The translations under genes and the position numbers were made by a program. From positions 1 through 12,515 of IMG/VR virus record IMGVR_UViG_3300006092_000059: 12,515 nucleotides of DNA; one strand, written 5' to 3'. Numbering within the stretch: the first letter of the stretch is position 1; each line of letters begins with the position of its first letter. Shown here piece after piece: positions 3-12,515 of this stretch. The notes under the pieces are model-generated. The model was not told where the DNA came from and did no database searches. It worked only from the letters and a program-made list of their open reading frames with translations. The DNA comes from a virus. Its lineage: Duplodnaviria; Heunggongvirae; Uroviricota; Caudoviricetes.

Positions 3-3000
3 GTTATAGAACAAAAGATAAATGATTATGCTTTGAAATATGGTGAAACCCCAATTACAAACGATAGTTGGGGAATTGCCAAATTTATTCAAAATACTTT
101 AGGAGCACAAACTTCTGAAGAAAAAGCTATTAGAGAACTTCAAGATGAAAGAGATTCTAAGTTAGCAGATATAAAGAAAACTGAACAAGAATTAAAAAAT
201 ATCTATGCAGATAGTTATTTACAATCTTCTTTATTAGGTAATCAAAAAGCTATTTCTGCTTCTAAATTATATAATCCAGCAGATGCTAAGTCATTAGAAG
301 ATATAGAAAATAGCACTCAGTTTCTTACTACATTTAAAGATGCTTCTGATCAACAAATTATAGATAGATATAAAAATATAGGTATTACTTCTACTAATAT
401 AGATAACCCTGCAAAGATTAAAGCTAAACAGTTAGCTACAAAAACTTCTGAGCAAAAGTTTGGTCTTTTTGGATATTCAGATGTATCTAATGAAGAGAAT
501 CTTTATAATGGTATGATGCCAGAGATTCAAGCTTTATCTAATACTATTAATGAAGATAAAACTAAATTAGAAGAATTACAAAAAGGTTATGATGTTAATT
601 TTTCTGTTGAGGCTCTTAATAAGTTAAAGAGTGATGGTAAAGTATTATCTCCAGAAGGTGAAAAATTCATGGATGAATTATCTTTAGCTATTAGTGTTTT
701 TAGAGATAATATAAAAACTAAAGAAGATGTTAAGAATAGATTTTTTGATATTCTTAAAAAGAATACAAAGAATTATAAGGGATATAAAGATAATCAAGAA
801 CTTCTTAATTATTTAAGAAATGAAAGTCCTTTTACTGAAACTACTGTAGCAGGTGCTCAGGAATTTACTACAAAACTTGCAGGTAGACTTACACAGTTTG
901 CTCACTTAGGAGCTGCTAAATTATCTGATAATGAAGTTGCAGCTGAAAAGATTTTTTCAGAAAGACAATTCTTTCAATCTTATCAGAAACTTTATAACGG
1001 TAAATATACTGATATAGGTGAAATTCCAGCAGTACAAGTATTTGATAAAGATGGACATTTTAATTTTGATGCTGATCTTTCTGCTTTATGGTTTCAAACT
1101 GTTAAAACAGCAGGTGAATCTACTATATTAGGTTTTAGTGGACAAGCAGCTAAGTTAGTAGGTAAGAAAGCTATAGATAGAGCTATTGCTAAAACTGTAT
1201 TAGAATCTGAATTTGTTGCTACTATTCCTGCATTACAAAGAGCAGGGATAAAAGGAGTTGATTATATTAAGACTACAGGATTAGGATATGTAGCACCTTC
1301 AGTGTTAATGTATAGTCCTGAGATGATTAATAATGAAATGAAGTATAAAGGTTTAACTTTTGACCAAGCTTTTAAAATAGGTGTTTTAAGAGCTGTAGGG
1401 CAAGGTTGGACTGAAGCTATGTTTCTAAATGAGCTTATGATTCCTAAATTCTTAAAGGGTGAAATAGCTCCAAAACAATTAGCTAAAATAACTCAAGAAG
1501 AAGCATTTAAAAATGCTGTTGTTAATGGTGTTGAGAAACAAATAGGAACAAAATTAACTGATGCTGGATATAATTTTATATTTAACCCATTGGCTAAAAC
1601 CAGATTAAAACAATTTGCTAAAGGAAGTTTAGTAGTAACTACTGAGGAAGGATTAGAAGAAGATTTAGGAGATGTATGGGATAAGATGTCTGATAAAGTA
1701 GCTGAAACTTATAAAGCAGGTTATGAATCAGATCCACTTACTGTAGAATCTTTAATCAATACTTTTGTACAAACTGCTGCAACTATGGCTTTTCAAGGTG
1801 TAACAGGTGGTGTTACTAAAGTAAGAGAGTTTAATGCTGTTAATAATTATACTATTGATCAGTCTAAATATTTAGTTGGAAGCAGTCCTGAGATATATAG
1901 AAATACAATTAAAGGGCAATTAGCTGATGGTACTATTACTCAAGAAGAAGCTAATAGAAGATCTGCTCAAATAGATCATTTAGTTGGTTTATATAATTCT
2001 AATACTACTACTAATACTAAAATAGATGATAGTAAACTTAGTGTTCTTGAAAAGAATGCTATGAAGAATGAGTTATTTATAGCTACTCTTAGAGAAAATG
2101 AATTATCCTTAGTAATACCAAGAAATGAAAAAGAAGCTTCTAAATTAGTACAAGATGTTGAAGCTGTATTTAATCATAAACAAAATCTTATAGATGCTAT
2201 AGATAATTATGTAAGCAGTCCTGAGGAAAGAAGAGAAAAATTAAGAGTGTCTACTGAATCTAAATTGTTTGATGCTACTTATACTAATAAATATATTAAT
2301 GGTCTTGAAACAAAAACAGAAGTAAGTAATATTGTTACTAAATTAACAAGACAATTAGAAAAAGAAACTAGTCCAGAATTACAGGATAAGATTACTAAAA
2401 CTATTGGTAAACTAAACACTAGACTTTCTCAATTTACTGAAGAAACAAAGCCAAAACCTACAGAAGAAACATTTGAGTCTATTGTAGAGAAAATAAGCCA
2501 TCTTCCTGCAAAAGCTAAGGATGCTTATATTAGTATGAAGATTAATGAACTTGCTGCTTTATCTACTTATACAGATGAAAAAGAAGGTGCTTTAATTAAT
2601 AAACTATTGGATTACAATCAAACAGTCAATGATGAGATTGTAAAGGAGGATAAACTAGCAGCCCTTAATTTACTTAAAGAAGGAGATCCTGTAAGTTATC
2701 AAGGAAAAAGTTGGACTATTAAATCAGTTCAAGATGATAATATAACACTTGAGAATCAAATTCAAGGTGGTACAGAAACTACTACTATATCTAAAGAAGA
2801 TTTACTTGGAAGATTAAAACCAGTAGAAGCTGTAGCTGCTCCTGTGTCTACATTAGAATCTTTAAACAAAGAATTGCAAATTTTAAAACAGCAATTAACT
2901 ACTGCTAAAGAAGAAGAAAAACAACAAATTCTAGATGGTATTAGTTATGTAGAGGAAGAAATAAAAGATCTTGAAAGAACTGCTACAGTAGTTCCTAAAT

Positions 3001-6000
3001 ATGAAGAAGGAGAACATATTGTTAAAACTACTACTAATGATGGTGGTTTTGATGATGAGTATGATAGTCCAAGAGGTCTTACTGAATTAGCTTCTTTAAA
3101 TAAAGAGAGAAGACAAAATGAACTTGATCCTAATACTTCATTAGAAGTAACACGTACTGTTGGTATTAATCCAACTACTGAAAATATTAATGATCCTTCA
3201 TTAAGAACAAGACTTAATGTATTAGCTGTGTTATCTAAAAAGTTAGAAGAAACAGGTAATGTAAGTTTTGAGAATTTAGATAAACATGGATATTCTTTGT
3301 TAATATTATCTACTGAAGATTTATTAAAAAGAATGTTTCCTGCTTTAACTATCAAAACTAAAGAAGATATTGAGTTATATCAAGATGCTCTTATTGAACA
3401 ATTTGAACTTGAAAGAATAAACTATTGGAAACAAAATGGTATAGGTGAAGACAAAGAAAGTATATTAGTTTCTGCAGATAAAGGTGAGATATTAAGATTT
3501 AGTGATGATGGTGAACTTGATCCTAATGGAAGAGTAGCTTATTATCCTATTCCTCAAATTCATACAGCTGAAAGGCAATATGATCCTGATCAGATTTTAA
3601 CTAATGACAAAACTGGATTTAAACCTGGTAAGACTTTATTAGATAAAGGTCAGAATAGAGGAATATATGAAGCTAGTCTTAATGTTTTAAAACAAATAAG
3701 AGCTGCTTCTAAACCAGTTATTTACAAGATTAAGAAGTTATCTGATGGTGTTATTGCTAAAACCAATTTCACTATTGGTAGACCTAATGTTATTACATTT
3801 CTAAAAAGAACAGGATTGTCTGATGTATCTATTTATATAGAGCAAACTAAAGAAGAAAAAAGTACAAAACAAGGTGCTGCTTATATAATGGATAGTAAAG
3901 GTAATAAGTGGCTATTAAAAAGACCTCAACTAAACCGTACTGGTTGGATTAATGCTATTATAAATATGTCACTTCCTAATGAGTCTATTAGTAAAGATGC
4001 ATTAGCTACCTTAAAAGATCTTGGACTTGAAGAATGGGAAGAAAGATATAAATATATAGGTAAGTTAATTTATTTGTCTAATAAACATACTGCTGATTTA
4101 GGATTAGATATATCTCTTACTAAAGATAAAAAAGCTTCTTTAATAAAAATTAGTGAACGCTACTTTAATAGAGTAAAAGAATTAGATCCTAATTTTAATA
4201 AATTAAGTGAGATTGAAAATTCTGATGGTACTAAGACATATGTTTTGTATATGGATAAGTCTTATAGTAAAGATTTATTCAGTATGTTGTTAAGAGATCA
4301 GAAAAAACTCAACTTAATAAAAGCACCAGAAGTTGGTAATTTTAATGTTATAAGTTTTGAAGGTGGTACAACTACTGGTAAATTCTTTATAGCAGATGGG
4401 GATACTTATACTAGTTATAAGGATTTTGTATTTAATAACTTTGATGTATTTGCTGAACCAGAAAAAAGTATTGTTGAATTAAGAAATGCTGGAATAAAAA
4501 GTTTTCCAGGACAATACTTACAATTAGATATATCAGATGCTCAATTAATAGGAGAAGAAGATAAATTAACTGGTATTGTAAAAGTTACTCCTAGTCAAGA
4601 TATTAATAGTCTTGAATTAGAGATGAGTAATTTATATGACAATACTGCTACTGCTGAAGAGAAAAAAGCAGCTGAAGATTGGTGGAATAGTGATGCTACT
4701 AAGCATTTAAGACAATCTATAAGTTTAAAGAAAATGCTTACTATTGTCAATAGTAAGAGTTTTGCTAACTTTAAAGATTGGACTATTACCTTATATAATG
4801 CAAGCAATCCTACTGCTATTTATCATGAAGCATGGCATGGATTTTCTCAAATGTTTTTAACTAAAAGACAGAAAACTAATCTCTATAATGAGCTTAGAAG
4901 AAAGTCTGGAGATGCTCCTGTAATTTATATTAAAGGTGTTAAATATGAAAAGAAATTTTCTGAATTAACAGATAAACAAGCTGAAGAAGTTTTAGGTGAA
5001 GATTTCAGATTATATGCTAAATCTGGAGGTAAGATTTCTTTTGGTAAAGAAGTAGCTAAGCAAACTATATTTGGAAAAATGTGGAATGCTATAAAAGAAT
5101 GGTTAACTGGTAATGTATCGTTAGATGAATATTATAGACGTTTATATGTAGGTGATATTTATAATTATGAACCTTCTATAGATAATCAAATGTTTACTAG
5201 TTTGGATAAGTCATTTGATGCTTTCTATAATAAGAATGGTAAAGCTTTTGCTAAAACTATAGGTAGTAGACAAATAAATGAATTTGTAAATGTTATAGAT
5301 AATATTATATCTCAGACTCTTCAAAATAAGGGTATGATGCATATTCTATTTAGTAAAGACCAAGATGTTGTTAATAGAAACCTTTCTAGATTATATAAGT
5401 TTACTCAAACTGAAATAGGTAATAAATTAGCAACTTTAACTCCTGATAGTGAAGAATATGAAGATCTTAATATTCTATATACTAACTTTGATAGATTTGT
5501 AACTCAAATACATAGTGATCAATCTTACTTATTTAGAAACATTAAGATAGAATTTGATCTTACAGACTTTGTAGAAAGTGAAAAGATAGATGAAGATCAG
5601 GAAAATAAACATAAGATTTCTTCTTTAAATACAGATGAAATCACTGATGATGATCTTGTTGATAGAGATAATATAGTTAGTTTTGCTGAAGAGGGCAGAT
5701 ACTCTGCCATAGAAAAAGCTTCTAATGAGATTATTTATTTAATTGCAACGCTTCCTAAATATATAAATGGAAAGCTTGTACAAGATAGATTTGGATTTAC
5801 TAAGTTAGCTAGCTTTGATATTACATGGTATAGACTTGCTAAAGAATTACAAGGTGTGTATGATGTAGAGCAAATGTATAAGAAGATAGATCAACTTGGA
5901 GATAAATATCCAGAGTTTAAAGAGTTATTAAAAAGACTTCCTGATATATCCAATCCAGCTACAGATCTTAGACAAGTAACTCTTGTTCAGCAATTTATAA

Positions 6001-9000
6001 TAGATTTTTCTAAACCTCTTGTAGAAATGTATGAGGGTATACTAGAAAAAGGTGATGAAGGTTTGACATTTAGAAATATTAAATCTTCTAATAAAGCTAC
6101 TAAAACTGTTAAGAAGATCTTTACTGATATATTCAAAGATATAGAAGATAGTAAATTTGTATCTAAAACTGAAACAGATCAGAATAAACTAGTTATACCA
6201 GAATTGGTAAAAGAGTTTGCTGAAATTACTTCTGATAGAGATGGTAATGAAATAGTAGAGTTAACTTCTAATACAGATAAAAGGTTGGAATTTTTAAAAG
6301 CTATAGGTTTTGAATTTTCACAAATAACTCTTGATAGTAAAGATTTTAGAGATTCAATAGATGCTAAAAAAGTACAAGTAAAATATGGAAAAGATATTCT
6401 AAATCTTATATTTAAAGATCTATTGTATCTTGATAAGATGGGTATTGAAATTACTGAACCTATTGACCAAGTAAGTAGTAGATTTAAAAATCATAAAGTA
6501 GGTAATAGTAGTTATGATCATAAGGGAGAAGCTGCTAATATTGAGAAATTATTAAATCTTGAAGTTCAAGCTACTAATGAGTATTTTGAAGATAGTGCTA
6601 TTAATCCTAATGGAGATTTAGTATGGCAAACTCAGAATTACAGTAAGATTACTTTATTATACTCAGATCTTAATAATACTGAAAAGTATCCTGATTATCA
6701 ATCTATTATTAGTTTACCACAGTATTACTATTTGGATGAAGCTAAAAATCCAGGAATAAGACATTCATTAATATTGAATTCAATGTTTGTTCTTGATGAG
6801 GATGGTGAGAATTTTGGTAAGAGAAGACTTGATGACTATAAAAATCCTGTTAAGATTTCTCTTAAAGAAATAGGTGGATTAAAATATAGAGAAGAAACTG
6901 GTATTACTAGATCTTCTAAAACTACAGATTTAAGTGTATTTGATAAGATTTTATACGACTTCAATTCATTTGTAACAAATGGAATTGTAGAACATATGCG
7001 TTATGCTGATAAAGGAAGTGCTAAAGGAACTCTAGTTCCTAAGTATATTTCTTCTGGAACATTTTTACCTGTAGCTATTACTAAGTTTTCAGAAGAGAAA
7101 GTTCCTGTAGCTGCTAGAAAGATATTTGAATTATACTTTAAAAGAGAAATAGATCAAATAAAACAATACTATGATATAGAAGCTACTAATCCTAACTCTA
7201 TTAAATGGTATAATACTAATGATAAATTAGGAAGCCAGTTTAGAATATTTGACAATATACTAGATCAAGATACAAAAGATAAGTTATATAAGTCTATTAA
7301 GTCTGGAACTGATACAACTACAATAGCTAATTCAGTAGATCTTAAACCTCATCTTGAAAGTTTCTTTGATAGACAAGTAGCTGAATTAAGAGCAAGACTT
7401 ATAAAGATACCAGCTATTGATAATGAAGGAATTACTAGAAACTTCTATAATTCTAAATTAGGTATAATAGAAAGTAAAGTAGGTGTTAATTATTTACATT
7501 TCTTACATGCTTTTATTACTAATAATTATATTTACAATATAGAGCAGATGTCTTTATTAAATGGAGATCTTGCTAACTTTAAAAAAGCCAATGATGTTCA
7601 TAAAAGATTAAGTGCAGATAGTGCTACTGGTACTTTTGCATTTATGAATAACTATGTGCAAACTTTTCTTAATACTTTAGGTAGAGGACAAGCTTCTATT
7701 CTTAAAGGTAAAGGCTATACAGTAGCAGATAGAAAAGAAGATGGAACTTATAATACAGCTATATTTACTGATGTTGTATTAAGAAGTCAATATACAAAAG
7801 CTTATCTTGATGAGATCTTAAAAAGTGCTAATGTAGATCTTACTGCTGATGAATTATTAACTTTGCCTGTGGCTAAAGCTACTGAGCTAATTAATTCAAA
7901 ATCAAATGATTTAAAGGATAAAACTAATATCTTAACAACTGTATTGGATAAGTATTCTGAAATAACAGAGGGAGATGCTCTTGGATTATGCACATTAGAT
8001 TTTTATCGTAATTTTAAGATTCTAATAGGACAATGGAATGATGTTGCTGAAAAAGCTTATCATAAAGCTATATTAGGCGAAACACTTTCAGAAGATGAAA
8101 TGTATTACTTTGTGCCTATTAAAGCTCAATACTCTGGCCCTATTGCAAACAGTGAATCTGTATTTGGTAGATATGTAAGAATAGATGCATTTGATAAATT
8201 TGCGTTAGTTCCTATTCTTCCAAGTGCTGTAAAAGGTAAACCACTTGAAGTATTTAATAATAATCTTGTTAAGCAAGGTATTGATTATGCTATGTTTGAA
8301 TCTGGAAGTAAAAAATCTTCTATTGTAAAAGATGGACATTTTAATCAATTCTATTTAGGAGATATTAATAATCGTACTCTTAATGATGGAACTTATAATA
8401 TAAACTCTAAATTCTTTACTTACTTGAAAGAACAGGTTTATATAGAACCTAAAATAAAAAAAGATATTATTTATGCCACTCAGTTTAATAAATTATTCTC
8501 AATAGATTTATATGAGGATGGTAAGGCTTTATCTCCTGAAATAGAACATTTAAATAACCAATATCGAGAAGTAAGAAATAAACTAATACATAATGAATTA
8601 AATAGATTATTCAGAGAGTTAAAAGTTAAAAGAGAAGGTAATGATTTTAAACTTCAAGATTACTCAGGTATAGCTTCTATTCTTCAAAAAGAATTTGCAT
8701 TAAGAGATCTTCCTGATAATATGAGAGATTTCTTAGTATTGAATAGTAGAAATGAATTAGAGTTCAGTTTGGATAGTAGTTTGTCAAGACAACAAATTAA
8801 TAAAATACTTTTGAGTATTGTTAATAATCGTTTAGTTAAGTATAAAGTCAATGGTGATAATTATATTCAGACAGCTTTTACTGGATGGGATACTGATAAC
8901 ACTTTGAAGATCTATGAAAAGAAAGAAAAAGATGGTAGAGAATATATTACTAAGATGCAAGTTAAAGTATCTATTGGTAAGTTTAAACCTTTATTAAATT

Positions 9001-11714
9001 TAGTATGGAAAGGTGAGAAGATTTCTACATTGGATAAACTTAATAGTTTATTAAAGAATGAAGAATTTGTTCAAGCAAATGAAGATAAACTTACTATAGT
9101 AGGTGTGCGTATTCCTGTACAAGGAGCTAACTCTATGGTAAATGGAATAGTTCAAGAATTTTTACCAGAAGAAACTGGTAGTCTAATTGTATTGCCTACT
9201 GAGATTACAGCTATTGCAGGATCTGACTTCGATATTGATAAATTAAGTATGTATACTCCTAACTTTAAAAAGAATGGAGAATTACATAAAATTCTTACTG
9301 AAGAAGAAAAGACTAAAATAAAAACAAAAATAACTGATATTTACAATGAGTTGTTTGAATATATAAATATGCCAATAGATGAATCTAAAGGTAGAAAAGT
9401 ATTCAGAGATAGTATTAATCATTTTCTTGAAGAACAAGAAGGATATGGTCTTTCTTATAAAGAAAAAGTAGATGGATTAAAAGAATTCATAAGAAGTGAA
9501 ATACTTAATTATACTCCAAATGATGCTTATCAAGCATTTGACTTTATGTTATTTGGAAGTTTTGTAGAAAGAATTTCTGATGATATAGAAGATTTATATG
9601 ATGATCTTCATAATAGTGATAAGTATGCACTTCAAAACCAATTGATAAGTATTACTAGTAGAGTATTGAGTTTACCAAAGATGTTTGAATCTTTAACAAC
9701 TCCTAACTCTAATAGTATTCTTGAGCCTCTTGCTGAAGAAATGAATTCTATTTTCCATTACTCACGTAAGATGGATTTCTCAAAAGTATTGGGTTATCCT
9801 GAACAATTAAACCAATTTGAAGCCAATCTTGTGGGTAAAGCAACATTAGGTATTGCAGCTGTTCATAATACATTTGGGCAGTTATTAAAGCAACATAATG
9901 TTTACTTAAATAGACAATATTTTATTGAGGAAAAAACAGCTTATGGTAGAGTAAAAACTAAGAAAGTTCCAGTAATAAGATTAAAACATAATACTGTAAT
10001 TGTAGATGGTAAATCTCATATTAGTTTAGCTAAGATTAAAGATGCTAATAATGAACATAAAATAAGTGAGGTTATTTCTCAGTTTATAAATGGATATGTG
10101 GATGTAGCTAAAGGTGCATGGGTGTTTTGGTTAAATGCTACTTATGAAGCTGCTCCTGTAATGTTTTATTTAAATCATGCTGGAGTTCCTATAAAAGAAA
10201 ATATCTATTTAATTAATCAACCTATTATTAGAGATTACTTAAGATATAAGAAATTTCAGAAATTTATTGCTGGTAGAGCTATAGATAGTTTTTATCAGAC
10301 TTTATATCCAAGTAAAATTAGTGAATTGTTATTTACTGATTATCTTGGAAGTTATAGTAAAAGTACTGTTACTAAATTGAATCTGTTTTCAGATAAGAAT
10401 TCTAAAATTTTCTCTGAAGAGAATCTATATAAGAATGTAAAAGAAGCTAAGCAATTAGAAGATCTTACTCCTGAAGAAAGACATGAGCAAGCTGCTATTT
10501 TAGCACATTATTTAGATCTTGAAGATCAAGCTCAAAACTTAAGACATTTAATGACTTCTCTTAACTTTGACACAAGAAAAATTGGTAGTGTGTTTGAAGC
10601 TTTTGATAAGAATAATGCTTTTGATAGAGTTGTTGAAACAGGAATGTTCCCTAAAGAAAGTATAGAAGCAATTAAACATGATAGTGTAATATCAATGTTG
10701 GATATGAATCCTATTGTAGCTAAGTTGTATCCTAAGTTTTATAAGATTGTAGAAAGTCCAGCTATTAATAATTTTATATCTAAACACATAAAAGATGCTG
10801 ACTTTGGAAAGTCTGATATATTTGAGTCAAGATTTAAGAATGATTTAGTAGGATTTATGTTTAATATGTTTGGTAGAGAGTTAGATAGCCCTACTGGAAT
10901 GTTTGAACCTGGAACTATATTTGATAAGATAGCTCCTCAGTTTAGTGGTAAAATGGTAGAGAGATTAAAGTCTATTAAAAAGGCTCATCCTAATCTATCA
11001 AAAGAACTTCCTATATTAGATTTATTAGTAGGAGATCGAAGCAAAATTAATAGTATCTATAATATTAAACCTAAGAAAGTTTTAAAAGAAACTGTTGATA
11101 TTAACAGTATGATTGAGGATTTTAAAAAAGGATTAGAGTATTCTAAGTTAGATCCTAAGTCTAATACAGATATTCAAGAGTTCTTTAAAGATCTTATTTA
11201 CTTTGGATTTATTCAAAGTGGAGTTAATAAAAACTTTACTGCTTATACTAACTTATTACCAACTGAATCAATATCAAGAATAATTGATAATGCGATTCCT
11301 ATTATGAACAAGTTAATAGAGAAAGATCCTAACTTCTTGACTACTTTTTATATTGCTTATTTTATGAAGAATAACCCATTCTTAGTAAAGAAAGCAGCTT
11401 TAAAAAGAGTAGGATTAATAGAAAGTCATGGAAGAGATGTGTCTGGACATGATATAGTTGAATATCATTACAATAGAGAAGGTTATAGATTCAAATCTAA
11501 TTTAACTATTAATGATAGAATTAAAGATATTCTTGGAGAAGAAGTAACTACTGCAGTTTCTTCTGAAGAAGAAGACCCTTTATATTCATATGAAGATGTT
11601 AATTTTAGTGAAGAGACTTTAGGAGAAGAAGAAAATAATGTATCTTTGAATAAAACAGAAGATTTAACAGATAAGGATATTCCTGATTCAACAATAGATA
11701 GTTGTTCTACATGA
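3..11714 (+). CDS. Giant virion-associated polyprotein: crAss-like (Crassvirales) two-barrel virion DNA-dependent RNA polymerase fused to an N-terminal zincin metallopeptidase and a putative ejection/pilot region; 5'-partial
   Basis: Uninterrupted frame ending in TGA at 11712-11714. The frame is also open upstream of the track's TTG at 33 (3-32 reads VIEQKINDYA, no stop), so the true start lies left of the window and the protein exceeds 3,903 aa. RNAP motifs: VGVRIPVQG (R at 9108) and AGSDFDIDKL (DFDID 9225-9239), plus upstream HKRL (7599), EGDALG (7968-7985), PIKAQY (K 8121) and FDKFALVP (K 8196). Zincin motif YHEAWHGF at 4821-4844. Confidence 0.93.
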   Translation, partial: VIEQKINDYALKYGETPITNDSWGIAKFIQNTLGAQTSEEKAIRELQDERDSKLADIKKTEQELKNIYADSYLQSSLLGNQKAISASKLYNPADAKSLEDIENSTQFLTTFKDASDQQIIDRYKNIGITSTNIDNPAKIKAKQLATKTSEQKFGLFGYSDVSNEENLYNGMMPEIQALSNTINEDKTKLEELQKGYDVNFSVEALNKLKSDGKVLSPEGEKFMDELSLAISVFRDNIKTKEDVKNRFFDILKKNTKNYKGYKDNQELLNYLRNESPFTETTVAGAQEFTTKLAGRLTQFAHLGAAKLSDNEVAAEKIFSERQFFQSYQKLYNGKYTDIGEIPAVQVFDKDGHFNFDADLSALWFQTVKTAGESTILGFSGQAAKLVGKKAIDRAIAKTVLESEFVATIPALQRAGIKGVDYIKTTGLGYVAPSVLMYSPEMINNEMKYKGLTFDQAFKIGVLRAVGQGWTEAMFLNELMIPKFLKGEIAPKQLAKITQEEAFKNAVVNGVEKQIGTKLTDAGYNFIFNPLAKTRLKQFAKGSLVVTTEEGLEEDLGDVWDKMSDKVAETYKAGYESDPLTVESLINTFVQTAATMAFQGVTGGVTKVREFNAVNNYTIDQSKYLVGSSPEIYRNTIKGQLADGTITQEEANRRSAQIDHLVGLYNSNTTTNTKIDDSKLSVLEKNAMKNELFIATLRENELSLVIPRNEKEASKLVQDVEAVFNHKQNLIDAIDNYVSSPEERREKLRVSTESKLFDATYTNKYINGLETKTEVSNIVTKLTRQLEKETSPELQDKITKTIGKLNTRLSQFTEETKPKPTEETFESIVEKISHLPAKAKDAYISMKINELAALSTYTDEKEGALINKLLDYNQTVNDEIVKEDKLAALNLLKEGDPVSYQGKSWTIKSVQDDNITLENQIQGGTETTTISKEDLLGRLKPVEAVAAPVSTLESLNKELQILKQQLTTAKEEEKQQILDGISYVEEEIKDLERTATVVPKYEEGEHIVKTTTNDGGFDDEYDSPRGLTELASLNKERRQNELDPNTSLEVTRTVGINPTTENINDPSLRTRLNVLAVLSKKLEETGNVSFENLDKHGYSLLILSTEDLLKRMFPALTIKTKEDIELYQDALIEQFELERINYWKQNGIGEDKESILVSADKGEILRFSDDGELDPNGRVAYYPIPQIHTAERQYDPDQILTNDKTGFKPGKTLLDKGQNRGIYEASLNVLKQIRAASKPVIYKIKKLSDGVIAKTNFTIGRPNVITFLKRTGLSDVSIYIEQTKEEKSTKQGAAYIMDSKGNKWLLKRPQLNRTGWINAIINMSLPNESISKDALATLKDLGLEEWEERYKYIGKLIYLSNKHTADLGLDISLTKDKKASLIKISERYFNRVKELDPNFNKLSEIENSDGTKTYVLYMDKSYSKDLFSMLLRDQKKLNLIKAPEVGNFNVISFEGGTTTGKFFIADGDTYTSYKDFVFNNFDVFAEPEKSIVELRNAGIKSFPGQYLQLDISDAQLIGEEDKLTGIVKVTPSQDINSLELEMSNLYDNTATAEEKKAAEDWWNSDATKHLRQSISLKKMLTIVNSKSFANFKDWTITLYNASNPTAIYHEAWHGFSQMFLTKRQKTNLYNELRRKSGDAPVIYIKGVKYEKKFSELTDKQAEEVLGEDFRLYAKSGGKISFGKEVAKQTIFGKMWNAIKEWLTGNVSLDEYYRRLYVGDIYNYEPSIDNQMFTSLDKSFDAFYNKNGKAFAKTIGSRQINEFVNVIDNIISQTLQNKGMMHILFSKDQDVVNRNLSRLYKFTQTEIGNKLATLTPDSEEYEDLNILYTNFDRFVTQIHSDQSYLFRNIKIEFDLTDFVESEKIDEDQENKHKISSLNTDEITDDDLVDRDNIVSFAEEGRYSAIEKASNEIIYLIATLPKYINGKLVQDRFGFTKLASFDITWYRLAKELQGVYDVEQMYKKIDQLGDKYPEFKELLKRLPDISNPATDLRQVTLVQQFIIDFSKPLVEMYEGILEKGDEGLTFRNIKSSNKATKTVKKIFTDIFKDIEDSKFVSKTETDQNKLVIPELVKEFAEITSDRDGNEIVELTSNTDKRLEFLKAIGFEFSQITLDSKDFRDSIDAKKVQVKYGKDILNLIFKDLLYLDKMGIEITEPIDQVSSRFKNHKVGNSSYDHKGEAANIEKLLNLEVQATNEYFEDSAINPNGDLVWQTQNYSKITLLYSDLNNTEKYPDYQSIISLPQYYYLDEAKNPGIRHSLILNSMFVLDEDGENFGKRRLDDYKNPVKISLKEIGGLKYREETGITRSSKTTDLSVFDKILYDFNSFVTNGIVEHMRYADKGSAKGTLVPKYISSGTFLPVAITKFSEEKVPVAARKIFELYFKREIDQIKQYYDIEATNPNSIKWYNTNDKLGSQFRIFDNILDQDTKDKLYKSIKSGTDTTTIANSVDLKPHLESFFDRQVAELRARLIKIPAIDNEGITRNFYNSKLGIIESKVGVNYLHFLHAFITNNYIYNIEQMSLLNGDLANFKKANDVHKRLSADSATGTFAFMNNYVQTFLNTLGRGQASILKGKGYTVADRKEDGTYNTAIFTDVVLRSQYTKAYLDEILKSANVDLTADELLTLPVAKATELINSKSNDLKDKTNILTTVLDKYSEITEGDALGLCTLDFYRNFKILIGQWNDVAEKAYHKAILGETLSEDEMYYFVPIKAQYSGPIANSESVFGRYVRIDAFDKFALVPILPSAVKGKPLEVFNNNLVKQGIDYAMFESGSKKSSIVKDGHFNQFYLGDINNRTLNDGTYNINSKFFTYLKEQVYIEPKIKKDIIYATQFNKLFSIDLYEDGKALSPEIEHLNNQYREVRNKLIHNELNRLFRELKVKREGNDFKLQDYSGIASILQKEFALRDLPDNMRDFLVLNSRNELEFSLDSSLSRQQINKILLSIVNNRLVKYKVNGDNYIQTAFTGWDTDNTLKIYEKKEKDGREYITKMQVKVSIGKFKPLLNLVWKGEKISTLDKLNSLLKNEEFVQANEDKLTIVGVRIPVQGANSMVNGIVQEFLPEETGSLIVLPTEITAIAGSDFDIDKLSMYTPNFKKNGELHKILTEEEKTKIKTKITDIYNELFEYINMPIDESKGRKVFRDSINHFLEEQEGYGLSYKEKVDGLKEFIRSEILNYTPNDAYQAFDFMLFGSFVERISDDIEDLYDDLHNSDKYALQNQLISITSRVLSLPKMFESLTTPNSNSILEPLAEEMNSIFHYSRKMDFSKVLGYPEQLNQFEANLVGKATLGIAAVHNTFGQLLKQHNVYLNRQYFIEEKTAYGRVKTKKVPVIRLKHNTVIVDGKSHISLAKIKDANNEHKISEVISQFINGYVDVAKGAWVFWLNATYEAAPVMFYLNHAGVPIKENIYLINQPIIRDYLRYKKFQKFIAGRAIDSFYQTLYPSKISELLFTDYLGSYSKSTVTKLNLFSDKNSKIFSEENLYKNVKEAKQLEDLTPEERHEQAAILAHYLDLEDQAQNLRHLMTSLNFDTRKIGSVFEAFDKNNAFDRVVETGMFPKESIEAIKHDSVISMLDMNPIVAKLYPKFYKIVESPAINNFISKHIKDADFGKSDIFESRFKNDLVGFMFNMFGRELDSPTGMFEPGTIFDKIAPQFSGKMVERLKSIKKAHPNLSKELPILDLLVGDRSKINSIYNIKPKKVLKETVDINSMIEDFKKGLEYSKLDPKSNTDIQEFFKDLIYFGFIQSGVNKNFTAYTNLLPTESISRIIDNAIPIMNKLIEKDPNFLTTFYIAYFMKNNPFLVKKAALKRVGLIESHGRDVSGHDIVEYHYNREGYRFKSNLTINDRIKDILGEEVTTAVSSEEEDPLYSYEDVNFSEETLGEEENNVSLNKTEDLTDKDIPDSTIDSCST
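846..1814 (+). other. Gly/Ala-rich amphipathic helical region, resembling phage internal-virion (ejection/pilot) proteins
   Basis: aa ~272-594 of the track protein: VAGAQEFTTKLAGRLTQFAHLGAA, AFKIGVLRAVGQGWTEAMF, FAKGSLVVTTEEGLEEDLG and the 23-residue uncharged run SLINTFVQTAATMAFQGVTGGVT. Assignment is by recalled pattern resemblance only. Confidence 0.45.
2673..2807 (+). other. Putative small SH3/KOW-like beta-barrel domain within the giant protein
   Basis: LKEGDPVSYQGKSWTIKSVQDDNITLENQIQGGTETTTISKEDLL: a GD-x-V-x-Y-x-G-K-x-W-x-I pattern with alternating beta-strand periodicity, flanked by helical/coiled-coil sequence. Confidence 0.45.
4671..5111 (+). other. Zincin-like metallopeptidase domain (HExxH ... 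E) within the giant protein
   Basis: ITLYNASNPTAIYHEAWHGFSQMFL (HEAWH 4824-4838, aa 1598-1602) preceded by a beta-strand. A downstream helix EEVLGEDF (4983-5006) supplies a candidate third Zn ligand, followed by the amphipathic helix IFGKMWNAIKEWL. Confidence 0.85.
7599..8315 (+). other. RNAP beta-like double-psi barrel region (DPBB-B) with candidate conserved Asp/Lys residues
   Basis: HKRLSADSATG (7599), EGDALGLCTLDFYR (D 7974), YFVPIKAQYSG (K 8121), FDKFALVPI (K 8196) and ESGSKK (8298-8315), in the order expected upstream of the catalytic barrel in single-chain two-barrel polymerases. Residue equivalences are inferred. Confidence 0.6.
9099..9245 (+). other. RNAP catalytic beta-prime-like barrel (DPBB-A): RxP motif and DxDxD Mg-binding loop
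   Basis: VGVRIPVQGANS (R3026 in track numbering) followed 39 codons later by GSDFDIDKL (D3065/D3067/D3069, nt 9225-9239). DFDID is the catalytic motif of crAss-like virion RNAPs, as opposed to NADFDGD of cellular RpoC. Confidence 0.92.
11538..11711 (+). other. Acidic, probably disordered C-terminal tail ending in ...DSCST
   Basis: The last 58 residues contain 19 D/E and only 2 K, with no hydrophobic core pattern. Confidence 0.75.
11711..11714 (+). promoter_or_regulatory. ATGA stop/start overlap (translational coupling) between giant RNAP ORF and zincin ORF
   Basis: ...TCT ACA TGA / ATG AAA TTA... No Shine-Dalgarno-like sequence is visible upstream. Confidence 0.8.
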
Positions 11715-12364
11715 AATTAATAAAACGATACAAAGAGTTTACATTAAGGCTTATAAAGCCACATGTATATATTATAACAGGAAAAAATAGATTTGATATT
11801 GCAATACACTTTTTGAGATCTCAGGAGTGGTATGAATGTTCAAATTCTAAATTTAGAGGTAAATCATTCGATTTATTAGATTATATAGATTGGTATAGTA
11901 AGGAAAGAGGAAATGGAGCTTTTACTTATCCTACTGATTTTATAGGATTTAATCTTACTGATGATATATTTGATAAAGTATATAAACCTGATTTCTACTT
12001 TAACAAATATGATAAAAGAATGATGGAAATATATAGAGATGTAAGAGAACATAATGGAGAAGGAAGATTTACTATTATGGGAGTATTAGAAGGGGATAAA
12101 GAAACTATAGATCATGAGTTGGCACATGCTTATTGGTATCTTTACCCTTCTTATAGAAGAGAAATGCGTAAGTTAATTAAAGAACTTCCTGAAGATATTA
12201 AGTTAAATGTAGAAACAGCATTAGCTAAAAGTATGTATAGTGCTAATGTATTTCCTGATGAAACTCAAGCTTATATAAGTACAGGATTAGGAGATGATAT
12301 GGAAGTTCCAGATAAAATAATTGAACAATTTAAAGAAGTTTTTAATAAATACAATAATATATGA
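11711..12364 (+). CDS. Stand-alone zincin-like (HExxH) putative metallopeptidase, 217 aa, phage hypothetical type
   Basis: ATG at 11711 overlaps the upstream TGA (ATGA), a better start than the track's TTG at 11702. Motif TIDHELAHAYWYL (HELAH 12113-12127) preceded by a beta-strand (FTIMGV), with a candidate third ligand in PDETQAY (E at 12260). Stop TGA at 12362-12364. Confidence 0.8.
   Translation: MKLIKRYKEFTLRLIKPHVYIITGKNRFDIAIHFLRSQEWYECSNSKFRGKSFDLLDYIDWYSKERGNGAFTYPTDFIGFNLTDDIFDKVYKPDFYFNKYDKRMMEIYRDVREHNGEGRFTIMGVLEGDKETIDHELAHAYWYLYPSYRREMRKLIKELPEDIKLNVETALAKSMYSANVFPDETQAYISTGLGDDMEVPDKIIEQFKEVFNKYNNI
12361..12364 (+). promoter_or_regulatory. ATGA stop/start overlap (translational coupling) between zincin ORF and GIY-YIG ORF
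   Basis: ...AAT ATA TGA / ATG AAA TAT... No Shine-Dalgarno-like sequence is visible upstream. Confidence 0.8.
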
Positions 12365-12515
12365 AATATAAAGGTTCTTGCATTTATATTATAAGAAATT
12401 TAGTAAATGGAAAAAGGTATATAGGAAGTACTTCTTCTTTTAATAATAGAAAAGCTGTACATAATTTATTACTTAGAAAAAATAAACATTTTAATAAACA
12501 TTTACAAAGTGCATA
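12361..12515 (+). CDS. GIY-YIG endonuclease (I-TevI/Seg-like homing endonuclease), N-terminal 51 aa, 3'-partial
   Basis: Not in the ORF track. Translates MKYKGSCIYIIRNLVNGKRYIGSTSSFNNRKAVHNLLLRKNKHFNKHLQSA..., with no stop before the window end. It aligns without gaps (offset 3) to the I-TevI catalytic domain as recalled: CIY=GIY, YIG=YVG, F27=F24, catalytic R30=R27, H34=H31, H43=H40, LQ48-49=LQ45-46. The ATG overlaps the upstream TGA. Confidence 0.9.
   Translation, partial: MKYKGSCIYIIRNLVNGKRYIGSTSSFNNRKAVHNLLLRKNKHFNKHLQSA

Follow-up and report, generated by a model that had tools for sequence, protein, structure and literature searches.

A probable long-form crAss-like virion RNA polymerase gene encoding a helical front part, a zincin-like domain and a gp66-like polymerase in one chain

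The giant open reading frame described here most probably belongs to a "long form" of the crAss-like virion RNA polymerase (RNAP) gene, encoding a chain of four blocks (probability about 0.8). These would be a helical module of about 1,250 aa specific to this phage branch, a module of about 450 aa common to shorter forms, a zincin domain with the motifs HExxH and EExxAExF, and a unit of about 2,150 aa homologous to the two-barrel RNAP gp66 of phage phi14:2. From homology, we infer that the protein would be packed in the capsid and enter the host before or together with the DNA, that the ejected polymerase would transcribe early genes, and that the zincin would most likely cut proteins, either the polyprotein itself or other cargo, thereby releasing or activating the polymerase.

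The window, that is the whole stretch of DNA analysed (12,515 nt, 28% G+C), is the initial part of a 76.5-kb linear IMG/VR virus record. The full-length protein is referred to as P0003, and its residue numbers are those of the window translation plus 194. The features are listed below.

3..11714, plus strand: giant open reading frame, residues 195-4097 of a 4,097-aa putative long-form virion RNAP polyprotein, truncated at its 5' end.
3..3170, plus strand: N-terminal lineage-specific module (P0003 1 to about 1250), whose first 194 aa precede the window.
2688..2792, plus strand: predicted small four-strand beta unit (P0003 about 1090-1124; AF2 model residues 851-885, pLDDT roughly 63-79).
3183..4529, plus strand: mixed alpha/beta module before the zincin (P0003 1255-1703), from hhalign and the AF2 model.
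4644..5171, plus strand: zincin metallopeptidase-like domain (P0003 about 1742-1917), from motifs, homology and the AF2 model.
5268..11711, plus strand: gp66/gp50-like RNAP moiety, start approximate.
11711..12364, plus strand: separate 217-aa gene with a HELAH motif, from a phage-only family; its ATG overlaps the RNAP stop by 4 nt.

The giant gene was confirmed to be real. Positions 3 to 11,714 form a single stop-free frame of 3,903 codons with its stop at 11,712-11,714. Stop codons are common at 28% G+C; thus a frame of this length is not a chance event. The frame runs off the 5' end of the window, where the contig end truncates the gene. Extension to the left, proposed in the first-pass annotation as a way to find the true start, was provided by the Logan assembly of run SRR1025216 (L004), which is 100% identical across 21,714 nt and adds another 1,227 nt on the upstream side. 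There, an ATG 194 codons before the window frame, overlapping the stop of the upstream gene, gives a full protein of 4,097 aa. The identical protein is also encoded on a contig of a second run, SRR1027651.

Sequence comparison supports the assignment of the protein as a crAss-like virion RNAP homologous to phi14:2 gp66. In BLASTP, window residues 2499-3411 aligned to gp66 858-1656 (E 3e-25, 943 columns, identity just 22%), and the same core aligned to crAss001 gp50 over 808 columns (E 4e-25). The significantly aligned core corresponds to nt 7497-10235. The DFDID motif is located at window residue 3075 (nt 9225-9239; P0003 3269), and not at 3065 as initially given. It aligns with the catalytic DFDID of gp66 (D1361) and with DFDVD 1483 of gp50, so that the earlier mapping onto gp66 was reproduced. 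From the long gp66 alignment, we infer two double-psi beta-barrel domains; a PDB sequence search with the giant protein gave no match. The chain continues for 828 residues after DFDID, as compared to 819 in gp66. The start of the moiety was estimated from the ends of the gp47-type genes in crAss001 and Dulem virus 41. Altogether, the central architectural claims of the first-pass annotation were borne out: zincin and RNAP lie in one frame, the polymerase part makes up a whole unit of gp66 size, and more than 1,700 extra residues are fused ahead of it with an intact zincin at their end. When the RNAP was used as a tblastn query, 85 phage records were matched; the 30 listed are crAss-like, as are most of the others judging by organism name.

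The HExxH of the zincin, already recognized in the initial reading, is a HEAWH at window residue 1608 (nt 4824-4838; P0003 1802), followed by an EE..GE.FR motif at nt 4983-5009. Across 116-123 relatives, conservation of YHExxHxFxQ and EExxAExFR is at least 90%. The second motif lies 53-61 residues past the first His of HExxH, and its Glu residues are candidates for the third zinc ligand that zincins have on a downstream helix. The H, E and H of HExxH are invariant in the 116-sequence alignment, but its rows were selected for HExxH; the flanking Y, F and Q, which were not selected for, are at least 90% conserved or invariant. Within the second motif, the same alignment shows no variation at E602 and conservation of 90% or more at E601, E606, F608 and R609. 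Moreover, this segment is shared with proteins of known crAss-like phages: P0003 1780-1885 matches crAss001 gp47 2135-2231 (pairwise E 7e-4), P0003 1735-1894 matches residues 2256-2400 of the 2,474-aa gp47-like protein of Dulem virus 41 (E 2e-9), and the equivalent stretch of cr50_1 is matched at E 3e-7.

In the AF2 model, the zincin domain reaches a pLDDT around 90, and its predicted fold shows no more than a modest likeness to anthrax lethal factor and Pro-Pro endopeptidases. Model residues 463-664 are spanned by the five best VIA rows, four of which are zincin proteases; none attains the Z 8 caution level: lethal factor (Z 6.2, 148 aligned, rmsd 6.4), PPEP-3 (Z 6.0, 136 aligned, rmsd 4.1), PprI (Z 5.6, 90 aligned, rmsd 3.5) and PPEP-2 (Z 5.5, 131 aligned, rmsd 4.2). 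The best Foldseek match was also lethal factor (E 0.078). Searches of Pfam (up to E 1) and PHROGs with the whole protein and with pieces of it returned no peptidase family. Therefore the domain is not assigned to M34 or to any other named family, and is labelled "zincin-like".

The part of the chain ahead of the zincin consists of two modules. The one adjoining the zincin is common to long and short forms, as indicated by an hhalign match to the N-termini of 81 short forms (probability 98.2%, E 4e-14). The N-terminal module runs collinear to the N-termini in 12 further long-form clusters, and is predicted to be almost wholly alpha-helical in a low-confidence AF2 model. Indeed, the model, made for P0003 240-1250 with 13 sequences, is of poor quality (mean pLDDT 62.5). 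Foldseek and VIA searches with the front-part model returned generic helical bundles only, the best at Z 9.0, which is under the caution level for helical proteins. An "SH3-like motif" had been proposed for this part of the chain; the model places the small four-strand beta unit there at low confidence. Likewise, the "Gly/Ala amphipathic region" amounts to a modest enrichment in G+A (16-18% over P0003 401-800) and nothing stronger, and no hydrophobic segment in it is strong enough for a membrane helix.

Homologues of the front part were looked for in several ways. Pfam, PHROG and PDB sequence searches gave no match supporting any block of P0003. No related locus was detected when the first 1,000 aa were compared with viral contigs, and no stand-alone homologue when residues 1-1740 were run against the shorter proteins of a large protein collection, when the 13-sequence alignment of residues 1-1250 was run against proteins of 613-3,367 aa, or when residues 1-1760 were run by tblastn against 50,697 phage records; these searches pre-filter on shared words, so that distant relatives may escape them. 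Direct comparison of the first ~1,250 aa with gp47, gp67, the 2,191-aa protein of L005 and the cr50_1 N-terminus by BLAST, HMM and hhalign gave best E values of 0.016-0.07, which are not significant. The HMM, built from 13 long-form N-termini, and hhalign likewise gave no significant match to the 2,474-aa Dulem protein. In the fold searches with the front-part model, T7 core and ejectosome proteins came up at E 0.24-0.36, which was not counted as evidence. Single-linkage BLAST clustering did connect the front part to gp47 and gp67, but the path crosses different regions of the intermediate proteins, and the link was therefore rejected as domain hopping. Thus, as far as these searches reach, the only proteins recognizably homologous to the first ~1,250 aa are related long forms, and "cargo equivalent" can be used for them in a positional sense, not by homology. 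The "ejection protein" label of the first-pass annotation draws on gene position and on the zincin segment, and is not backed by any similarity of the first ~1,250 aa to gp47, gp67 or stand-alone proteins.

Gene order supports this positional equivalence. Downstream of the RNAP gene, after two small genes, a 2,053-aa open reading frame (13017-19178 of the record, G000) encodes a homologue of gp65 (2e-7) and gp49 (2e-9). In the nearest relatives (L012 and L013), genes of 935/982 aa and 533/545 aa are followed by the long RNAP and a gp65-like gene, and nothing the size of a separate gp47 gene intervenes between the 533/545-aa gene and the long RNAP. In Dulem virus 41, the order is 816, 546, 2,474 (with C-terminal zincin), 2,247 (RNAP) and 1,331 aa. 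The upstream region of the phage under study is known over 647 nt only, and the 215-aa end of the upstream gene (L004) showed no match to cargo-type neighbours. Blocks 1-3, from the front part to the zincin, occupy the place of the separate gp47/gp67 gene of other crAss-like phages. Fusion of an upstream cargo gene to the RNAP gene does occur, since the N-termini of some long forms (P0010 and others) are clearly homologous to the stand-alone gp47-like protein of L005 (E 1e-16). Long forms account for the majority of the well-supported clade containing P0003. The remainder of the contig is a crAss-like replication module, whose PolA is closest to those of crAss-like phages.

Among the closest known counterparts are phi14:2 and crAss001. 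In phi14:2, the virion two-barrel RNAP gp66 (2,180 aa) is flanked by gp67 (1,797 aa) and gp65 (1,421 aa). The phage under study shares with phi14:2 a homologous catalytic core with aligned DFDID, an RNAP unit of equal size, and the order cargo part, RNAP, gp65-like protein. They differ in that the upstream part belongs here to the RNAP chain, ends with a zincin and has no detectable similarity to gp67, whereas gp67 of phi14:2 has no HExxH. Conversely, gp65 of phi14:2 has a HEIMH at residue 245, while the gp65 homologue here has no HExxH and carries an ART-PolyVal domain. In crAss001, gp47 (2,341 aa) and gp50 (2,412 aa) each match one part of P0003, gp47 through its C-terminal zincin (HEAFH at 2157) and gp50 through the RNAP core. 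However, they are encoded by separate genes on opposite strands, and no similarity was detected between the gp47 body and the N-terminal 1,700 aa of P0003. Together with gp49, both proteins were identified as virion cargo by mass spectrometry (PMC10172136).

Three RefSeq proteins of the Suoliviridae have the same layout in one chain: cr50_1 (YP_010110216.1, 4,774 aa), cr118_1 (YP_010110531.1, 4,946 aa) and cr109_1 (YP_010112503.1, 4,328 aa). Their HExxH lies at 1665-1734 and their DFDID at 3154-3222, as compared to 1802 and 3269 here. Two mid-sized genes (about 540-675 aa) come before each of their genes and one of about 1,390 aa comes after it; in cr50_1 the latter was shown to be gp65-like. 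In contrast to this shared layout, similarity to P0003 is weak and confined to the zincin and RNAP (E 2e-16 and 3e-7), and the N-terminal ~1,600 aa cannot be aligned. Moreover, the cr109_1 gene contains 70 in-frame stops under table 11, whereas the gene studied here needs no recoding. RefSeq long forms carry the annotations "DNA helicase", "exonuclease V" or "DprA-like".

Two further parallels exist. The virion RNAP gp50 of coliphage N4 has large non-catalytic N- and C-terminal parts, but it has the T7-like single-subunit fold, a polymerase class unrelated to that of P0003, and it is not known to contain a zincin. N4 gp50 is an analogue of P0003 and not a relative. PMC13434306 describes it as a giant packaged polymerase (~3,500 aa) that is ejected and transcribes early genes. 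For Thermus phage P23-45, a tape-measure protein fused to the virion RNAP (5,002 aa) is described in bioRxiv 10.1101/2022.12.01.518664. As described, it likewise joins a two-barrel RNAP in a single giant chain to a structural protein of the virion or one that is ejected; the phage belongs to another group, and the partner fused to its RNAP, a tape measure, is a different one.

The source record is a metagenomic contig, and a chimeric assembly or a stop-removing sequencing error could have joined adjacent gp47-like and RNAP genes into an artefact. This is extremely improbable: the identical 21.7 kb come from a separate assembly and the protein recurs in a second run, G+C content and skew are even across the giant frame, and two proteins from unrelated samples (P0005 and P0006, 46% and 42% identical to P0003 over residues 1741-2900) are collinear across the junction, from N-terminal module through zincin to RNAP. 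It is also very unlikely that the protein is an exceptional, previously unseen all-in-one injection and transcription machine, novel by the extent of its fusion as the first-pass annotation had suggested. In favor of this, P0003 falls in neither a Pfam nor a PHROG family and lacks close named relatives, and beyond the long forms there is no homologue of its first ~1,250 aa. However, among the 150 best cluster representatives, HExxH and DFDxD occur in one chain in 124, with HExxH 1,372-1,753 aa upstream of DFDxD. Long forms, with at least 1,300 aa ahead of the zincin, account for 36 of the same 150; 33 are at least as long as P0003 (4,097 aa), up to a maximum of 5,181 aa. The three RefSeq proteins, with the same motif spacing, add to this count against novelty, as does the literature: Drobysheva et al. 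reported orthologues of gp65, gp66 and gp67 fused as one huge polyprotein in some phages, and RNAP genes reach ~6,000 aa according to a review. The architecture is thus largely common among Crassvirales RNAPs, the very situation named at the outset as speaking against the claim. Since the one-chain layout is normal across an entire branch of crAss-like phages, P0003 is ordinary, though very divergent.

Whether the chain is cut is a separate matter, and we consider the odds of cleavage of P0003 to be about even. The chain may instead work uncut, like the 3,500-aa N4 virion RNAP, its front part serving in packaging and ejection and its zincin being an injected effector in the style of "polyvalent proteins" that would target host proteins or cell-wall peptides rather than the polyprotein; we regard this reading as possible but on balance rather doubtful. 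The zincin is conserved at the end of separate gp47-type proteins (crAss001, Dulem virus 41), so cutting at the junction is not needed to explain its conservation; being kept where gp47 and RNAP are separate, even on opposite strands as in crAss001, it cannot have junction cutting as its sole role. The ART-PolyVal effector domain of the adjacent gp65-like cargo protein also points to effectors, as do, weakly, language-model features of the N-terminal module toward the polyvalent-protein domains LPD14 and LPD22, and Drobysheva et al. raised possible peptidoglycan digestion. On the other hand, lethal-factor and PPEP-type enzymes cleave proteins and not peptidoglycan, and gp66 was crystallised in an autoinhibited state, for which Drobysheva et al. 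suggested proteolysis as one route of activation.

In crAss001 and Dulem virus 41 the gene break follows the zincin; in most relatives it falls ~650 aa before the zincin, and long forms have none. Cargo part, zincin and RNAP might be an ancient functional unit with shifting gene borders, in which the zincin cuts long chains where other lineages have their borders; as a whole, we hold this to be unlikely. In this branch, the first ~1,250 aa would then either have replaced the gp47/gp67 body without being homologous to it or have diverged from it beyond recognition, and would represent an undescribed family of ejected helical proteins that occurs solely as fusions to the polymerase. Taken alone, the gene leaves existing knowledge of these phages unchanged. 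P0003 does provide a complete, uninterrupted long form that is read without stop-codon recoding, and its branch is distant from the gut crAss phages. Its block map, together with the split points in other lineages, may guide the search for cleavage sites and the design of constructs, and bears on how the autoinhibited crAss-like polymerase would be released and activated.

The window (G+C 26-32%, GC skew positive and even throughout) contains a single reading frame of 3,903 codons that begins at nt 3, with its 5' end lying beyond the window, and is closed only by the stop codon at 11712-11714. Because the DNA is so AT-rich, a stop-free frame of 11.7 kb cannot be due to chance. The source IMG/VR record is linear (76.5 kb, estimated 64% complete) and the window is its first 12,515 nt; leftward extension within the record is thus impossible, since the window starts at nt 1. 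A search of a large protein collection recovered a 4,097-aa protein identical to the window product, hereafter P0003, encoded on contigs of two sequencing runs (SRR1025216 and SRR1027651). The SRR1025216 contig is 100% identical to the IMG/VR record over 21,714 nt and extends 1,227 nt further upstream. P0003 starts at an ATG overlapping the stop of the upstream gene, and only 194 of its residues are absent from the window (P0003 numbering = window aa + 194). The giant single frame described in the first-pass annotation was therefore correct. An assembly chimera is very unlikely, judging from the related chains P0005 and P0006: both come from unrelated samples and are collinear with P0003 from N-terminal module through zincin to polymerase.

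Features of the window and of the adjoining part of the record
Window 3-11714 (+): RNAP polyprotein, with HEAWH at window aa 1608 (nt 4824) and DFDID at window aa 3075 (nt 9225)
Window 11711-12364 (+): 217-aa gene, its ATG overlapping the RNAP stop by 4 nt
Window 12358-12515, continuing to record position 13050 (+): 229-230-aa GIY-YIG endonuclease that carries HTH domains
Record 13017-19178 (+), beyond the window: gp65/gp49 homologue, 2,053-aa ORF (called gene 2,049 aa)

The polymerase part was assigned by homology. BLASTP aligned window aa 2499-3411 with residues 858-1656 of gp66, the phi14:2 virion RNAP (E 3e-25), and window aa 2647-3411 with the crAss001 RNAP gp50 (E 4e-25). DFDID, initially placed at aa 3065 instead of 3075, falls on gp66 DFDID 1361. 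It is followed by 828 residues in P0003 and 819 in gp66, so the proposal of a complete gp66-sized polymerase unit was sound. In tblastn, 85 phage records were matched, those listed being crAss-like phages. The remainder of the record encodes PolA, DnaG primase, a DnaB-like helicase and an AAA ATPase, all on the opposite strand, and PolA is nearest to that of crAss-like phages (~30% identity). Judged by sequence, the source phage is a distant crAss-like phage.

The HEAWH stretch matches the C-terminal end of the crAss001 cargo protein gp47 (HEAFH at 2157 of 2,341 aa; E 7e-4). Its match to a gp47-like Dulem virus 41 protein is stronger (E 2e-9), and the corresponding stretch of the cr50_1 chain is matched too (E 3e-7). 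In 116 relatives, L537, H548, E549, H552, F554, Q556 and E602 were invariant, and Y547, E601, A605, E606, F608 and R609 were at least 90% conserved (alignment numbering; add 1254 for P0003). As these rows were picked for having HExxH, independent evidence of constraint comes only from the residues that flank HExxH and from the EE..AE.FR motif further downstream. Constraint on the zincin is clear. An AF2 model of P0003 1255-2000 had a mean pLDDT of 76.5, reaching ~90 over the zincin. Foldseek gave no significant match for this model, the best being anthrax lethal factor (E 0.078). With an exhaustive structural aligner, the top five rows all lay on the zincin stretch; four were proteases of the zincin type (lethal factor Z 6.2, PPEP-3 Z 6.0, PprI Z 5.6, PPEP-2 Z 5.5) and the fifth was Certhrax (Z 5.5). 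None of these scores is high enough for the fold match to be accepted by itself; in combination with the motifs, the matches lend support to a zincin-like domain. None of the curated peptidase families searched matched it, and it is therefore not filed in a named family.

Ahead of the zincin, P0003 1255-1703 shares homology with residues 171-586 in the short forms, the chains with less sequence before the zincin (profile-profile probability 98.2%, E 4e-14). In 12 further long-form clusters, the N-termini are collinear with the first ~1,250 aa of P0003. For this module, no stand-alone homologue was recovered from a 5.8-billion-protein collection and no match from phage records, and BLAST, HMM and hhalign comparisons with gp47, phi14:2 gp67, the cr50_1 N-terminus and a stand-alone gp47-like protein of 2,191 aa (locus L005) gave none. 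An apparent BLAST single-linkage cluster with gp47 and gp67 was rejected, as the path crossed different regions of the intermediates. The AF2 model of this module was nearly all helical and of poor quality (pLDDT 62.5), and fold searches returned generic helical matches only. A search for membrane helices in the N-terminal part found no hydrophobic segment of sufficient strength. The amphipathic Gly/Ala region noted earlier is indeed enriched in Gly+Ala, but only modestly. At the level of sequence, the first ~1,250 aa form part of a module observed solely in long forms, with no recognisable relationship to gp47 or gp67; this is the only point that is mildly new.

Order of genes around the RNAP (lengths in aa)
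phi14:2: gp69 420, gp68 579, gp67 1,797, gp66 RNAP 2,180, gp65 1,421
Dulem virus 41: 816, 546, 2,474 (gp47-like, zincin at end), 2,247 (RNAP), 1,331
Nearest relatives (L012/L013): 935/982, 533/545, long RNAP 3,870/4,378, gp65-like 1,947/3,212
Source phage: long RNAP 4,097, 217-aa gene, GIY-YIG endonuclease, 2,053-aa gp65/gp49 homologue

No separate gp47-sized gene was found in the gene order of the two nearest relatives. The N-terminal part of the long form thus occupies the exact place of the separate gp47/gp67 gene. Fusion of the upstream cargo gene with the RNAP gene does occur, since clear homology (E 1e-16) links the N-termini of other long forms (P0010 and relatives) to the stand-alone L005 protein. 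The border between cargo and RNAP genes varies by lineage (L005 3426-20314; L007 8098-22298; window 3-11714): in crAss001 and Dulem virus 41 it follows HExxH by ~150-185 aa, in L005 and the majority of relatives it precedes HExxH by ~650 aa, and long forms have no such border. Two chains, P0020 (HExxH at 890) and P0029 (HExxH at 2117), are very close from zincin to RNAP (end branches 0.11 each) and differ by ~1,200 aa before the zincin. This reflects either a recent split or fusion, or differing gene calls, and the pair could be a natural test case for the border position.

Downstream, the 217-aa gene carries HELAH (position 138 in the 220-aa ORF numbering starting at nt 11702). In the Atlas it falls in clusters that contain only phage members (52-174 of them); its structure is predicted with confidence (pTM 0.85), and its links to lethal-factor-like, SprT-like and DA1-like peptidases are weak (scores 0.82-0.83, TM <0.5). 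The gene possibly encodes a second, small metallopeptidase beside the polyprotein. The GIY-YIG gene, between the RNAP and gp65-like genes, looks like a free-standing homing endonuclease within the transcription block. The gp65/gp49 homologue carries an ART-PolyVal ADP-ribosyltransferase domain close to the N-terminus and lacks HExxH. At that place a zincin motif is found instead in phi14:2 gp65 (HEIMH at 245) and in the homologue from L005 (HEFAH at 207). The enzymatic head of the gp65-type cargo protein seems exchangeable. Downstream of P0006, the gp65-like gene (L013 23156-32794; 3,212 aa) has an N-terminus ~1,300 aa longer than that of the source phage.

When 1.84 billion cluster representatives were searched exhaustively with P0003 1741-2900 (phmmer), 502 relatives emerged, of which 256 had E values no higher than 1e-30. 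Among the best 150 of the 502, nearly all measured 3,000-5,181 aa, 33 had at least 4,097 aa, and 124 carried HExxH 1,372-1,753 aa upstream of DFDxD in one chain. The length before HExxH was bimodal (~500-1,000 aa in 82, 1,500-2,400 aa in 28); long forms numbered 36 of these 150 when variant polymerase motifs were counted in. In a tree of the zincin-to-polymerase region, P0003, P0005 and P0006 grouped together (support 100) within a 28-member clade of mostly long forms; the other clade, of 95 members, held mostly short forms plus a small long-form subclade. Three RefSeq Suoliviridae genomes also encode the one-chain layout.

One-chain layout in P0003 and three RefSeq Suoliviridae
cr50_1: 4,774 aa, HEAFH 1665, DFDID 3154
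cr118_1: 4,946 aa, HEAFH 1734, DFDID 3209
cr109_1: 4,328 aa, HEAWH 1718, DFDID 3222
P0003: 4,097 aa, HEAWH 1802, DFDID 3269

The RefSeq chains (L006 10057-24381, L015 3844 onwards, L016 3892-16878) are labelled 'DNA helicase', 'exonuclease V' and 'DprA-like DNA recombination-mediator protein', names that may reflect extra inserted domains or plain mis-annotation. For P0006 (4,378 aa), helicase-type Pfam matches are recorded (AAA_30, AAA_19, a weak UvrD_C_2, SLFN-g3_helicase). The cr109_1 CDS (L016 3892-16878) has 70 in-frame stops under table 11, consistent with the stop-codon reassignment known in its group; the window gene needs no recoding.

[quoted passage not shown] 2021, PMC7886860). The first-pass annotation was right in its identification of a cargo-position part, a zincin and an RNAP fused in one chain. 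The novelty that it saw in the extent of the fusion does not stand, given the 124 one-chain relatives and the three Suoliviridae. P0003 adds a new and very divergent member to an architecture that is already known and widespread.

Virions contain orthologues of gp66 and of its two adjacent proteins (Drobysheva et al., bioRxiv 10.1101/2020.03.07.982082), and those of crAss001 contain gp47, gp49 and gp50, all three with predicted helical folds (Bayfield et al. 2023, PMC10172136). By homology, the long chain would be packed in the capsid and cross the tail into the host partly unfolded, and its C-terminal part would transcribe early genes. The zincin might process the polyprotein and other cargo, or act on host proteins; we give cleavage of the P0003 chain itself roughly even odds. 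The domain is kept in all three settings: C-terminal in a stand-alone gp47-type protein, close to the start of the short-form RNAP chain, and mid-chain in the long form. Its role would thus go beyond cutting one junction.
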